Positions 285-2,916 of a DNA stretch of 64,000 nucleotides are shown here, one piece after another. The notes under the pieces were generated by a model that saw nothing but the letters and a program-made list of their open reading frames with translations, was not told the origin of the DNA and ran no database searches. The position numbers and the translations under genes are program-made. Every line of letters starts with the position of its first letter. Within the stretch, counting starts at the first letter, position 1. The DNA is taken from IMG/VR virus record IMGVR_UViG_3300026097_000805, positions 115,648-179,647 of that record; one strand, given 5' to 3'. Origin of the DNA: a virus.

Positions 285-360
285 TGGTGCTAGAGGACGG
301 AATCGAACCGCCGACACGAGAATCTTCAATACCCTGCTCTACCGACTGAGCTACTCTAGC
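285..360 (-). tRNA. tRNA-Phe(GAA)
   Basis: 76-nt cloverleaf, loop TT-GAA-GA, encoded CCA. Confidence 0.92.
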
Positions 361-364
361 ATTA

Positions 365-435
365 TGGTAGTAAATGATAGAATCGAACTATCTCTTCAGG
401 CTTATGAGACCCGAGTCCGGACCACCGGATTTACT
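365..435 (-). tRNA. Atypical CAT-anticodon tRNA (Met or Ile2)
   Basis: Acceptor AGTAAAT/ATTTACT, loop CT-CAT-AA, T-arm GATAG-TTCGATT-CTATC, CCA; D-arm non-canonical. Confidence 0.7.
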
Positions 436-436
436 A

Positions 437-519
437 TGGAGTGCAAGACAGGACTCGAACCTGCATAGTCTTACGACACGGATTTGCAATCCGATGCATA
501 ACCATTCTGCCACTTGCAC
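437..519 (-). tRNA. tRNA-Cys(GCA) with long variable arm
   Basis: 83 nt, loop TT-GCA-AA, discriminator U73, extra hairpin GTC-GTAA-GAC. Confidence 0.88.
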
Positions 520-520
520 A

Positions 521-596
521 TGGCTGGGGCGGAAGGACTCGAACCTCCAATCGACAGAATCAAAATCTGTTGCATTACCAATTATGCTACACCCCA
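521..596 (-). tRNA. tRNA-Gln(TTG)
   Basis: Cloverleaf, TTG anticodon, CCA. Confidence 0.93.
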
Positions 597-601
597 AAAC
601 T

Positions 602-677
602 TGGTGGACTCGCTCGGATTCGAACCGAGGACCAATTGATTAAAAGTCAACTGCTCTACCAACTGAGCTACGAGTCC
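602..677 (-). tRNA. tRNA-Lys(TTT)
   Basis: Cloverleaf, loop CT-TTT-AA, CCA. Confidence 0.95.
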
Positions 678-678
678 A

Positions 679-762
679 TGGTGGGGAAGGTAGGATTCGA
701 ACCTACTCACTTTACGAACTGATTTACAGTCAGCCGCGCCTCTCCAACTGCGCCGCTTCCCC
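679..762 (-). tRNA. tRNA-Tyr(GTA)
   Basis: 84-nt type II cloverleaf, CT-GTA-AA, CCA. Confidence 0.95.
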
Positions 763-763
763 A

Positions 764-839
764 TGGTGTCAAAGGATGGACTTGAACCATCGACCTAACG
801 GTTATCAGCCGTTTGCTCTACCAACTGAGCTACATTGAC
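764..839 (-). tRNA. tRNA-Ile(GAT)
   Basis: Cloverleaf, CT-GAT-AA, CCA. Confidence 0.95.
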
Positions 840-844
840 AAACT

Positions 845-918
845 TGGCACCGGTCCAGGGAATCGAACCCCGAGTTTCAGTTTTGGAGACTGACGTGTTG
901 CCATTACACTAGACCGAT
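845..918 (-). tRNA. tRNA-Trp(CCA)
   Basis: Cloverleaf, CT-CCA-AA, CCA end; first tRNA after attenuator 1. Confidence 0.93.
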
Positions 919-939
919 ATAAAACTTTTTCCTCCTACT

Positions 940-980
940 AAAAATAAAAAACCCCTGCTAATATCTCTACTAGCAGGGGT
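940..980 (-). terminator. Intrinsic terminator / attenuator 1
   Basis: ACCCCTGCTA-10nt-TAGCAGGGGT followed by TTTTTATTTTT; lies between the leader ORF and tRNA-Trp. Confidence 0.85.
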
Positions 981-1004
981 GCGTTAAATAACTTTTCTTG
1001 ACTA

Positions 1005-1082
1005 CTATGTCAAAAGCACACTCCTGCCTTCGCTAAACCAGCGAATGCAATATTGTTGAATATGTTTCATCATTGTAGTCAT
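1005..1082 (-). CDS. Putative attenuator leader peptide 1, MTTMMKHIQQYCIRWFSEGRSVLLT (25 aa)
   Basis: Manual translation; purine-rich AAAGAGA upstream, promoter ~40 nt upstream, double TAG stop, then terminator; codons match the downstream tRNAs. Confidence 0.75.
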   Translation of the reverse strand: MTTMMKHIQQYCIRWFSEGRSVLLT

Positions 1083-1119
1083 TTCTATTTCTCTTTGTTT
1101 AATTTCTTAGTATGTGTAT

Positions 1120-1148
1120 ACTATACACGTTTATTTATCTTCTGTCAA
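1120..1148 (-). promoter_or_regulatory. Sigma70-type promoter driving leader 1; spacer also contains GATAAATA late-type motif
   Basis: TTGACA-GAAGATAAATAAACGTG(17)-TATAGT. Confidence 0.8.
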
Positions 1149-1163
1149 CCGTTTATTTTACTT

Positions 1164-1187
1164 TTTGACAATTTAGATACAATATTT
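1164..1187. repeat. 24-bp inverted repeat copy A (pairs with 2564-2587)
   Basis: TTTGACAATTTAGATACAATATTT is the exact reverse complement of 2564-2587. Confidence 0.95.
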
Positions 1188-1191
1188 TAAA

Positions 1192-1266
1192 TGGTACACC
1201 GTAGGGGAATCGAACCCCTCTTTCCTGCGTGAAAGGCAAGCGTCCTAACCGATAGACGAACGGTGC
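1192..1266 (-). tRNA. tRNA-Glu(TTC)
   Basis: Cloverleaf, CT-TTC-AC, CCA. Confidence 0.94.
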
Positions 1267-1271
1267 ATATA

Positions 1272-1348
1272 TGGCGGAACCGACGAGACTCGAACTCGCG
1301 ACATCCTGCGTGACAGGCAGGCACTCTAACCAACTGAGCTACGGCTCC
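1272..1348 (-). tRNA. tRNA-Asp(GTC)
   Basis: Cloverleaf, CT-GTC-AC, CCA. Confidence 0.95.
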
Positions 1349-1354
1349 AATAAT

Positions 1355-1447
1355 TGGCGGTGAGGGTGGGATTTGAACCCACGGAACGCTATTAACGTTC
1401 GTCTGTTTTCAAGACAGGTGCAATAAGCCGGACTCTGCCACCTCACC
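1355..1447 (-). tRNA. tRNA-Ser(TGA)
   Basis: 93-nt type II cloverleaf, CT-TGA-AA, CCA. Confidence 0.94.
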
Positions 1448-1454
1448 AATAAAT

Positions 1455-1740
1455 TGGCAGCCCGTTAGCCACACACCGTTGGAATGATGCTTGTGACCCC
1501 TACACTGTAATAGCCCTGCTGTCTAGTTTATCAGTCTAGGGCACAAACTATTGTTTAGGTATAGGACTTTTGCTTCTCACTAAAGACCGCCACGGACCAA
1601 CGGACGGCACTCTTTAGAACTAACACTAATGCAAAGAGCAAGTGGTTAACCAATGCATCGACCTAGTTACTTGATAGACTATATCATATCTTTCGCTACT
1701 ATCGGGCGGTTCAGGCCCTTATCGCCGTCTCTTTCGAGCT
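1455..1740 (-). ncRNA. Unknown ~286-nt structured RNA with acceptor-like stem and CCA end
   Basis: 5' AGCTCG pairs with 3' CGGGCT-G-CCA; several internal hairpins; occupies a tRNA slot in the array; no T-arm, no ORF. Confidence 0.6.
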
Positions 1741-1750
1741 AGTGTGTAGT

Positions 1751-1826
1751 TGGTAGCGGGAGCAGGAATCGAACCTACCTCAGTCCGGCTTATGAGACCA
1801 GTGAGTTCCCAGAACTCTATCCCGCA
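1751..1826 (-). tRNA. tRNA-fMet(CAT), initiator-like
   Basis: CT-CAT-AA loop, 1:72 mismatch (T/T), CCA. Confidence 0.85.
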
Positions 1827-1829
1827 ACT

Positions 1830-1903
1830 TGGAGCGGATACCGAGAATCGAACTCGGACGATCACGTTGGCAACGTGAGAGGCTACCTTTACATCATATC
1901 CGC
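1830..1903 (-). tRNA. tRNA-Gly(GCC)
   Basis: Cloverleaf, TT-GCC-AA, U73, CCA. Confidence 0.92.
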
Positions 1904-1907
1904 AATA

Positions 1908-1983
1908 TGGTGGAGATACGCGGGATCGAACCGCGGACCTGAAGCTTGCAAAGCTACTGCTCTCCCATCTGAGCTATATCCCC
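1908..1983 (-). tRNA. tRNA-Ala(TGC)
   Basis: Cloverleaf, TGC anticodon, G3:U70, CCA. Confidence 0.95.
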
Positions 1984-1988
1984 ATTAA

Positions 1989-2065
1989 TGGTCTCGGTAG
2001 ATGGATTCGAACCACCGACCCTCTGGTCCCAAACCAGATGCGCTACCAGACTGCGCTATACCGAG
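1989..2065 (-). tRNA. tRNA-Pro(TGG)
   Basis: Cloverleaf, TT-TGG-GA, CCA. Confidence 0.95.
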
Positions 2066-2072
2066 TTTAATA

Positions 2073-2155
2073 TGGTGCCCTGGGGGAGACTCGAACTCCC
2101 ACTCCGAAGAACTGGTACCTAAAACCAGCGTGTCTACCAATTCCACCACCAGGGC
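2073..2155 (-). tRNA. tRNA-Leu(TAG)
   Basis: Type II cloverleaf, TT-TAG-GT, CCA. Confidence 0.94.
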
Positions 2156-2161
2156 AATTTA

Positions 2162-2236
2162 TGGTGCTGATGGAGAGAATCGAACTCCCAATCTACGCAT
2201 TACAAGTGCGTTGCCTTACCATTCGGCCACATCAGC
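2162..2236 (-). tRNA. tRNA-Thr(TGT)
   Basis: Cloverleaf, CT-TGT-AA, CCA. Confidence 0.93.
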
Positions 2237-2242
2237 AATATT

Positions 2243-2317
2243 TGGAGCGGGTGGACGGGATCGAACCGACGACACCTGACTTGGAAGGACAGTGCTCTAC
2301 CACTGAGCTACACCCGC
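2243..2317 (-). tRNA. tRNA-Gly(TCC)
   Basis: Cloverleaf, CT-TCC-AA, T-T mismatch in anticodon stem, CCA. Confidence 0.92.
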
Positions 2318-2321
2318 AATA

Positions 2322-2410
2322 TGGCGGAGCGACTGGGAGTCGAACCCAGTGAACGCGGTTAGCGTTCTACGGATTAGCAATCCGCTGCATTACCATCCTG
2401 CCCCCGCTCC
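2322..2410 (-). tRNA. tRNA-Ser(GCT)
   Basis: Type II cloverleaf, TT-GCT-AA, CCA. Confidence 0.94.
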
Positions 2411-2419
2411 GTATGTGTT

Positions 2420-2475
2420 TGGCTCTACCCTCCCCTCTGGGCGATTTAACTAACGAGGCATCTTGCGTTAGTACC
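2420..2475 (-). ncRNA. ~56-nt CCA-ending hairpin element (mini-RNA or tRNA remnant)
   Basis: ACTAACG/CGTTAGT hairpin, ends GCCA, flanked by the same short spacers as neighbouring tRNAs. Confidence 0.3.
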
Positions 2476-2480
2476 ATGTT

Positions 2481-2555
2481 TGGCTCCCGGTGTTGGAATC
2501 GAACCAACCAATGACGGATTAACAGTCCGCTCCCCCACCTTGGGGGCAACCGGGA
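2481..2555 (-). tRNA. tRNA-Asn(GTT)
   Basis: CT-GTT-AA loop, CCA; unusual C5/G5 D-stem. Confidence 0.9.
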
Positions 2556-2563
2556 ATAAACCT

Positions 2564-2614
2564 AAATATTGTATCTAAATTGTCAAAGAGCGTGTAGCAA
2601 GTTCTTCTTGCTAC
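2564..2614 (-). promoter_or_regulatory. rrn-like leader: boxB-like hairpin, boxA-like GCTCTTTGACAATTTA and inverted repeat copy B (2564-2587)
   Basis: GTAGCAAG-AAGAA-CTTGCTAC hairpin followed by a sequence resembling rrn boxA (TGCTCTTTAACAATTTA). Confidence 0.6.
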
Positions 2615-2625
2615 GTTATGTATAT

Positions 2626-2654
2626 ACTATACTACTTTATTCTGTGCCTGTCAA
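2626..2654 (-). promoter_or_regulatory. Sigma70-type promoter for tRNA array 2
   Basis: TTGACA-17bp-TATAGT. Confidence 0.8.
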
Positions 2655-2674
2655 CTACTATTTTGCCTTAAACC

Positions 2675-2713
2675 AAAAAAAAACCTTCCTTGCTGTGTGC
2701 TTGGAAGGTTTTT
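2675..2713 (-). terminator. Intrinsic terminator / attenuator 2
   Basis: AAAAACCTTCC-13nt-GGAAGG followed by T9. Confidence 0.85.
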
Positions 2714-2737
2714 GGAATCTTGTTAGCTAATGCTCGC

Positions 2738-2827
2738 TTACGTTCCGCAACCCTCCAGGCATAGACTACCCGCTGGATTTTCCGATCCAGGTGTCCATGT
2801 ATCTAATGTGAGTACGAATGTAAACAT
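2738..2827 (-). CDS. Putative attenuator leader peptide 2, MFTFVLTLDTWTPGSENPAGSLCLEGCGT (29 aa)
   Basis: Manual translation; AAGGA RBS and GATAAATA motif upstream; terminator 25 nt after stop; codons match array 2. Confidence 0.75.
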   Translation of the reverse strand: MFTFVLTLDTWTPGSENPAGSLCLEGCGT

Positions 2828-2916
2828 TGAAAGTTTTTTCCTTATTAACTATGCATTTATTTATCATCTAGATAAAAAACACGCACATATTGGCTTATTT
2901 TTGGAACTTTGCTGTG

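Follow-up and report, generated by a model that had tools for sequence, protein, structure and literature searches.

Why should a short open reading frame (ORF) whose codons seem to list the members of a tRNA array stand directly in front of that array, and why should this happen twice in one viral genome? The question is raised by IMG/VR virus record IMGVR_UViG_3300026097_000805, a single contig of 179,647 bp with 38.6% G+C. Its last 64 kb (64,000 nucleotides, positions 115,648 to 179,647 of the record) is the stretch of DNA analyzed here, which we call the window; in its genes it is similar to marine T4-like myoviruses and large phages. The whole genome has 20 tRNA genes plus one transfer-messenger RNA (tmRNA), and all of the tRNA genes lie at window positions 285-2555, on the minus strand, in two arrays. 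We refer to the two ORFs as leader 1 and leader 2, after the array that each one precedes.

We propose that both ORFs encode the leader peptides of attenuators of the trp/ilv type, in which a ribosome mediates the control of transcription, and that the genes controlled are those of the tRNAs. We consider this the probable explanation; under it, slow reading of the codons of a tRNA set probably leads the phage to make more of that set. Judging from the sequence evidence, array 1 supports the interpretation and array 2 does so in part. The usual view is that promoters and processing control the tRNA genes of bacteria and phages, and our literature searches found no published account of attenuation of phage tRNA genes. 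Feedback from the speed at which their own codons are decoded would be, for tRNA genes, a regulatory logic of a new kind, and it bears on why phages carry tRNAs and on how they cope with tRNA-targeting immunity and with the loss of host tRNAs.

Two tRNA arrays, each behind a short ORF and a terminator

The tRNA sets were obtained with ARAGORN, and cognate codons were assigned by strict wobble rules. The elements that belong to array 1 are, in window coordinates:

1120-1148, minus strand: P1, a TTGACA-17-TATAGT promoter driving leader 1 (11/12 consensus match; its spacer holds GATAAATAAA)
1005-1082, minus strand: leader 1 ORF, 25 codons plus stop (an ORF in the sequence, conserved in relatives L009 and L063, diverged in L020)
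1035-1073, minus strand: leader 1 inventory block, codons 4-16, Met Met Lys His Ile Gln Gln Tyr Cys Ile Arg Trp Phe
1017-1028, minus strand: predicted antiterminator 5′ strand of leader 1, 10-21 nucleotides (nt) before the stop codon (shuffle p=0.046)
941-983, minus strand: predicted antiterminator 3′ strand (983 to 972), overlapping terminator 1 (13-bp stem, 980 to 951; T tract, 950 to 941)
285-918, minus strand: tRNA array 1, with Trp, Ile, Tyr, Lys, Gln, Cys, Met, Phe

And those that belong to array 2:

2738-2827, minus strand: leader 2 ORF, 29 codons plus stop (an ORF in the sequence, with a homologue in relative G001)
2762-2803, minus strand: leader 2 inventory block, codons 9-22, 14 codons with cognates for 11/11 array-2 elongator tRNAs
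2747-2760, minus strand: predicted antiterminator 5′ strand of leader 2, 7-20 nt before the stop, pairing with 2712 to 2703
2675-2712, minus strand: terminator 2, with an A tract, a 6+2 bp hairpin and 9 T (hairpin alone -12.6 kcal/mol)
2626-2654, minus strand: P2, a TTGACA-17-TATAGT promoter (11/12 consensus match), 3′ of terminator 2
1192-2555, minus strand: tRNA array 2, with Asn, Ser, Gly, Thr, Leu, Pro, Ala, Gly, fMet, a 303-nt spacer, Ser, Asp, Glu

Along the minus strand, the order is an oxygenase gene, the motif GATAAATAA, leader 2, terminator 2, P2, a 5′ hairpin and array 2; it continues with P1, leader 1, terminator 1, array 1, P0 and a phosphoesterase gene. A sequence-only reading of this DNA had described both arrays, with their members and their order, and had placed a short ORF plus a terminator upstream of each. 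Both descriptions are borne out, with all tRNA genes on the minus strand and the ORFs at 1082-1005 and 2827-2738.

Leader 1 has a Shine-Dalgarno-like AAAGAG at 1096 to 1091, 8 nt 5′ of its ATG. Terminator 1 is called by a terminator scan, with a hairpin of -21.5 kcal/mol, and between it and array 1 there is no promoter, only 22 nt from the T tract to tRNA-Trp. The layout of array 1 (promoter, leader, terminator, tRNAs) is that of a classical attenuator, and as read from the sequence it supports an array that would be fully gated. Leader 2 has a Shine-Dalgarno-like TAAGGA at 2844 to 2839, 11 nt 5′ of its ATG, and terminator 2 was missed by the terminator scan because of its long loop.

One member of array 1, the tRNA with anticodon CAT at window 365-435, has a poor tRNA score (29.6 bits). 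It could be a tRNA-Ile2 and not an elongator Met; leader 1 has internal ATG codons and no ATA codon.

The codons of each leader match its own array

Leader 1 has cognate codons for 8/8 array-1 tRNAs, and leader 2 has them for 11/11 array-2 elongator tRNAs, including both Gly and both Ser isoacceptors, just as the sequence-only reading had claimed. How unusual is such coverage? We searched all six frames of the whole genome for the shortest stop-free run of codons with a cognate for every tRNA of a given set. For the array-1 set, the genome-wide minimum is 12 codons, and it is unique: codons 5-16 of leader 1 (the best elsewhere takes 14). For the array-2 elongator set, the minimum is 14 codons, again unique: codons 9-22 of leader 2 (the best elsewhere takes 17). 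Both winning windows immediately precede the array that they cover, on the correct strand, and the chance of such a location is about 8 × 10⁻⁴ for each and about 7 × 10⁻⁷ jointly. The margins over the next best windows are moderate.

The match is also specific to the array. Only 35 of the 75,582 ways to split the 19 elongator tRNAs into sets of 8 and 11 are fully covered by the two leaders as they stand (p=4.6 × 10⁻⁴). In the sensing zones, that is, for the codons at which a stall would matter, the counts are 13:2 vs. 3:17 between the two tRNA sets (Fisher p=3 × 10⁻⁵). The array-specific codon content that had been claimed is real, with the correction that the ORFs as a whole have, outside the blocks, some codons of the other array.

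Two codons in the leader-1 block look foreign, His (CAT) and Arg (CGC), and the 179.6-kb genome has no tRNAs for His, Arg or Val. Relatives L009 and L063 carry Arg(ACG) and His(GTG) in their array 1, and thus the His and Arg codons of the block are cognate to tRNAs that this phage has lost. The same 12 codons of leader 1 are also the genome-wide best when Arg(ACG) and His(GTG) are added to make a set of 10 tRNAs, with the next best at 15. In the same manner, the lone Val codon (GTA) of leader 2 matches the tRNA-Val(TAC) in array 2 of the relatives. The leaders are in this respect a record of array history in which the codons of lost tRNAs are still listed. What is distinctive in this phage is the presence of two complementary paralogous leaders in one genome, one of which still names two lost tRNAs. 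The case also comes with a leader family that can be followed through relatives and that shows covariation.

Relatives and the wider family of leaders

Using the phosphoesterase gene as a query, we collected 54 viral contigs. In L009 (89% identity) and L063, leader 1 is almost unchanged, and array 1 consists of Trp, Ile, Tyr, Lys, Gln, Cys, Met, Arg(ACG), Phe and His(GTG). In L020 (65% identity), a diverged leader has the same ten amino acids in a different order, and it stands before Tyr, Trp, Cys, Arg, His and Phe. G001, the record behind L063, has a 28-codon homologue of leader 2 that is only about 40% identical to it, and that names every tRNA type of array 2, Val included, with four Val codons vs. 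one in the window.

A search with an exact 24-nt motif from the terminator of L020 and L008 uncovered a larger family. All 8/8 viral and 17/17 metagenome matches to the motif are just upstream of a tRNA array, and wherever the upstream sequence is present, the motif is preceded by a consensus promoter and a short ORF. The ATG of these ORFs comes 6-7 nt past the -10 hexamer, so the leader mRNAs of the relatives are probably leaderless. Both leaders of the window align with the family ORFs, sharing a near-invariant Cys and a Gly-Gly region or Gly-rich end, and on this alignment we take the two leaders to be paralogues. Across the family the composition of the leader is conserved and the order of its residues is not; indels in the leader ORFs are all in frame. 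In front of single large arrays, the leaders pack 19-20 kinds of amino acid in 32-40 codons, which only 0.3-0.8% of genome windows of equal length reach.

Does the codon content of a leader follow the content of its array? A check of this kind had been suggested together with the original proposal, and in the relatives collected here the codon sets do track the arrays. Pooled over 19 distinct but homologous leaders, 165/172 of the tRNAs in the governed arrays are covered at the codon level, against 36/73 of those placed upstream or in a separate distal cluster. One leader subfamily has zero Leu codons, and its tRNA-Leu(TAG) is outside the governed array. The leader of L076 has Arg, Ser and Gly residues, and yet it avoids the codons of three tRNAs that are placed upstream.

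Other searches added little. Comparing both leaders with the first 54 loci using blastn found L009 only, and the oxygenase neighbor as a query gave 4 loci with no useful arrays. A back-translated leader-2 pattern matched 4 contigs in which tRNAs are absent, and which we took as chance matches. Among isolate phages, a megablast search with window 900-3000 matched only at tRNA size, and tblastn with the neighboring genes returned distant relatives only. In the protein database, gene callers have called only 3 homologues of the leaders as proteins.

Predicted alternative RNA structures

To work as attenuators, the leaders would have to offer two exclusive RNA structures. We modeled the switch in silico, taking the nascent RNA as far as the terminator loop and masking the footprint of a ribosome. 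In the predicted antiterminator, the final codons of the ORF pair with the 10 nt before the terminator and with the first nt of its 5′ arm. The antiterminator forms when the ribosomal A site is in about codons 1-15 of leader 1 or 1-20 of leader 2, and it is lost when the ribosome is on the last 8-10 codons or on the stop. Under masking, the antiterminators of L009, L020, L008 and G001 behave in the same way, and every leader has a predicted antiterminator. Between stop codon and terminator there are 24-30 nt in all leaders.

The complementarity between the 3′ end of the ORF and the 5′ arm of the terminator, already pointed out in the sequence-only reading, does exceed that of shuffled sequences, modestly so in the window. 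The leader 2 duplex has -15.2 vs. -9.0 ± 2.3 kcal/mol for shuffles (p=0.012), and leader 1 has p=0.046. The duplex is stronger than shuffles in 10/10 leaders (p=0.001-0.046; relatives, 0.001-0.03). An RNAalifold analysis of seven relatives gives an antiterminator of 19 pairs. In 4 of these, both partners have changed and the pairing is kept; one such compensatory change turns the last codon from Val to Ala, which indicates that the RNA pairing has been kept at the expense of the peptide.

In untranslated leader 1, codons 7-12 of the ORF, which lie in the block, are predicted to sequester the 5′ strand of the antiterminator, like regions 1:2 of trp (fold z=-7.8). The untranslated RNA of leader 2 is predicted to fold into the antiterminator already. 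The anatomy, the codon-to-array match, the conservation and the covariation of the alternative helix are all present in this family of sequences.

A proposed mechanism

Translation of the leaders, stalling in them, the switch itself and its trigger are what we infer from these observations, and the steps might be as follows. The host RNA polymerase would start at P1 or, for leader 2, further upstream, possibly at GATAAATAA. A ribosome would translate the leader while the polymerase passes over the terminator region. If the block is decoded promptly, the ribosome at the last codons or at the stop would cover the 5′ strand of the antiterminator, 7-21 nt before the stop; with that strand covered, the terminator would form and transcription would stop. 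If any of the aminoacyl-tRNAs named in the block is scarce, the ribosome would stall upstream, and the freed strand would pair with the 5′ arm of the terminator. The polymerase would then enter an array that decodes those same codons, in a homeostatic loop. Array 1 would be fully gated in this way; attenuator 2 would only add inducible read-through beside a constitutive early P2.

The shortage could come from host defenses that cleave tRNAs, from the decay of host tRNAs, or from the codon demand of late genes. Anticodon nucleases as the trigger are speculation.

A broader proposal is that these leaders form a family of codon-inventory attenuators, by which a phage senses codon by codon which aminoacyl-tRNAs are lacking and transcribes the matching block. 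Leaders would then track the gain, loss and splitting of arrays, and an ancestral leader of about 20 amino acids would have given rise to the two complementary paralogues. We find the case for this broader proposal evenly balanced. If they work, the leaders would be small natural sensors that follow the supply of many tRNAs together. And because the elements are small, with sigma-70 consensus promoters and intrinsic terminators, they are directly testable in E. coli reporters.

Promoters and a conserved motif

Consensus promoters of the P1/P2 class number 31 on the minus strand vs. 3 on the plus strand, and most are just 5′ of genes with ribosome-binding sites. Given this strand bias and placement, we take P1 and P2 as real early promoters. 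Two further elements lie upstream of leader 2:

2857-2865, minus strand: GATAAATAA motif, placed 27 nt 5′ of the ATG of leader 2, for which it may serve as a late-type promoter
ending at 2917, minus strand: 2OG-Fe oxygenase gene, the first element of the locus, 5′ of GATAAATAA and leader 2

The genome has 8 copies of GATAAATAA, all on the minus strand and 0 on the plus strand, each 19-30 nt 5′ of a start codon; one of them is at window 1131-1139. The motif is at the same distance before leader 2 in G001, and it adjoins every leader promoter in the relatives. From its placement, we consider GATAAATAA a candidate T4-type late promoter or regulator site. If it is a late-type promoter, the attenuators would govern tRNA synthesis in the late phase.

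Evidence against attenuation, and other explanations

Several observations weigh against attenuation. Equilibrium folding keeps terminator 1 formed at every ribosome position, so that the switch, like that of trp, must be kinetic. Terminator 1 has 0.67 on a generic measure of arm pairing, within the 0.49-0.73 of 10 other terminator-like sites, all of which came from our own terminator finder, which did not detect terminator 2. By this null result, the single-sequence structural evidence for the window's own leaders (the p-values of 0.046 and 0.012) is modest. The Fisher value for coverage in the relatives, 9 × 10⁻¹⁷, is not independent, the leaders being homologous, and the same applies to the pooled counts. 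Codons of the other array do occur in the ORFs (Thr twice in leader 1; Phe twice, Trp, and Cys twice in leader 2). Moreover, each tRNA is represented by one codon rather than by a run. The tandem runs of regulatory codons that are usual in classical leaders are absent here; most tRNAs are named once, and the only repeated residues are Gln, Ile and Met in leader 1, and Thr, Pro and Leu in leader 2.

For array 2 there is a further difficulty. P2 stands between terminator 2 and array 2, and therefore array 2 has a supply that is independent of the attenuator; attenuator 2 can only add read-through transcription to a constitutive supply. The same terminator-then-promoter layout is found in relatives of the 40-codon subfamily and in G001. 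Leader 2 has no consensus sigma-70 promoter, and the spacing of its Shine-Dalgarno-like site is long (11 nt); with the GATAAATAA motif and the TAAGGA site alone, its start signals are weaker than those of leader 1. The sequence-only reading had proposed attenuation for both arrays and had missed P2. Its proposal stands as to the anatomy and the array-specific codons, which are conserved, and as to the antiterminator, which covaries; it needs amending for array 2.

Could leader 2 and its terminator be chiefly the end of an upstream operon, with P2 running array 2 and attenuator 2 surviving as a relic, or as a minor late-phase input, of an ancestral single attenuator? We regard this as a tentative alternative, and on balance an unlikely one. 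The consensus early promoter 3′ of terminator 2, the missing sigma-70 promoter before leader 2, and the recurrence of this layout in relatives are what would be seen in that case. However, the best array-2 inventory of the genome is still in leader 2, and neither full coverage nor the antiterminator has been lost from the diverged homologue in G001, an argument that selection on leader 2 has continued. The conservation of GATAAATAA before leader 2, in the window and in G001, also speaks against a relic.

It is less likely still, and we would be surprised, if the elements were switches coupled to translation that gauge its overall capacity (the availability of ribosomes, host shut-off or a defense that targets ribosomes) and not specific tRNAs, with the diverse codons merely making the ORF an average sample of decoding. 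The 19-20 amino-acid kinds in several relatives' leaders, the presence of one codon per tRNA with no runs, and the fold of untranslated leader 2, which is the antiterminator already, would suit such a sensor. It would not lead us to expect two paralogous leaders in this genome with complementary codon sets that match two arrays, nor the avoidance, at the codon level, of tRNAs outside the governed array.

We give little credence to the ORFs being independent genes, with separate promoters and terminators, that encode small functional peptides and whose position at a tRNA array is incidental. They do form promoter-ORF-terminator units of their own, and the three homologues called as proteins are in line with this. 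But what is kept in the family is composition and not residue order, compensatory changes in the RNA alter a C-terminal residue, 25/25 matches to the terminator motif abut tRNA arrays, and the codon sets track those arrays. Finally, chance is hardly credible as the source of the match between short ORFs and arrays: other parts of the genome do have windows nearly as short (14-15 codons for array-1 sets, 17 for array 2), but both rank-1 windows fall at the right place and strand (about 7 × 10⁻⁷ jointly), and the pattern is replicated in relatives.

Other features of the locus and of its relatives

Array 2 is flanked as a whole by a 27-nt inverted repeat, 96% complementary, at window 1161-1187 and 2564-2590. 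In G001/L063, both arms differ from those of the window in the same manner, and this parallel change suggests a long-range RNA stem. By analogy, it is perhaps a processing stalk like those around rRNAs. Within array 2, the 303-nt spacer (window 1448-1750) sits between tRNA-fMet and tRNA-Ser(TGA). It has neither an Rfam match nor a fold signal (z=0.18), and its ORFs do not exceed 32 codons. L009 lacks the spacer, the two tRNAs being adjacent there.

The 3′ side of terminator 1 has a perfect AGGAGG at window 931-936 with no start codon after it. At the equivalent place in L020 (about 1440-1500) there is an 18-codon ORF that ends 6 nt before tRNA-Tyr and is rich in Cys, Tyr, Trp, Lys, Met, Phe and Gln. 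The two may represent a second, decayed sensor.

At 300-620 of L009, an ORF for an HNH endonuclease is inserted right at tRNA-Asn, with a duplicated tRNA 5′ end upstream; from its sequence, this looks like the insertion of a homing endonuclease in the array. L008 has two decayed tRNA-like genes. A conserved hairpin with loop AACGCG, together with a GGGCGG-GGCC motif, is found in L008 (3860-4110), in L075 (3810-4400) and in L074 (past the second promoter), placed between the leader terminator and the first tRNA; it belongs to no Rfam family. A different conserved segment of about 130 nt, just before the tRNA arrays of L010/L011 (about 1940-2060) and L020 (about 850-975), resembles a structured RNA.

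The tmRNA is at window 39045-39429, with tag peptide ANDNYAPETALAA. A phage tmRNA could rescue ribosomes that are stalled through tRNA shortage.

Comparison with known systems

We have compared the locus with three kinds of known regulation. One is the tRNA clusters of other phages. Those of T4 and T5 are likewise clustered tRNA genes with early promoters and with interspersed small ORFs and stable RNAs. We found no report of attenuation at the T4/T5 clusters in the literature. The small ORFs of the T5 tRNA region were considered as codon inventories and set aside, as they resemble ordinary small proteins (by inspection of the translations only, with no coverage test).

Another is regulation by RNA leaders that sense tRNA. 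T-box riboswitches likewise sense the status of tRNA and choose between terminator and antiterminator in front of translation-related genes. A T-box, however, binds one uncharged tRNA directly, with no ribosome and no ORF, and in this the phage elements differ. In window 1-4000, no T-box specifier loop or T-box sequence matched Rfam at E ≤ 1; the only leader-type Rfam match there was PyrG_leader, at 31.5 bits vs. a gathering score of 65. The leaders and spacers have no Rfam family.

The third, and the one on which our proposal is modeled, is attenuation by a translated leader. Leaderless polycysteine short ORFs of mycobacteria reportedly act as attenuators that are Cys-only and control cysteine metabolism (bioRxiv 10.1101/834739). 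As in the relatives, with their probably leaderless leaders, a short ORF there controls the genes downstream. Unlike those mycobacterial ORFs, the window's own leaders have 5′ untranslated regions with Shine-Dalgarno-like sites.

The pheST operon of E. coli, with its pheM leader, is likewise a case in which decoding of cognate codons in a leader attenuates a component of the translation apparatus. There the product is one aminoacyl-tRNA synthetase and the leader has a run of Phe codons, unlike a multi-tRNA inventory placed before tRNA genes.

The closest anatomy is that of the enterobacterial attenuators of thr (Thr/Ile), ilvGMEDA (Ile/Leu/Val), trp, his, leu and pheA. They likewise have a promoter, a short ORF with many regulatory codons, and exclusive antiterminator and terminator helices, and in them also the stop codon is placed so that a finishing ribosome masks the antiterminator strand. 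The multivalent leaders of thr and ilvGMEDA sense several amino acids together, as those described here would. The enterobacterial attenuators control biosynthetic enzymes through runs of 1-3 kinds of codons, whereas the phage elements precede tRNAs and list 8-20 codons, mostly once each. And, unlike them, the elements described here are borne by a phage, and their signal would be the supply of the very gene products that they control.

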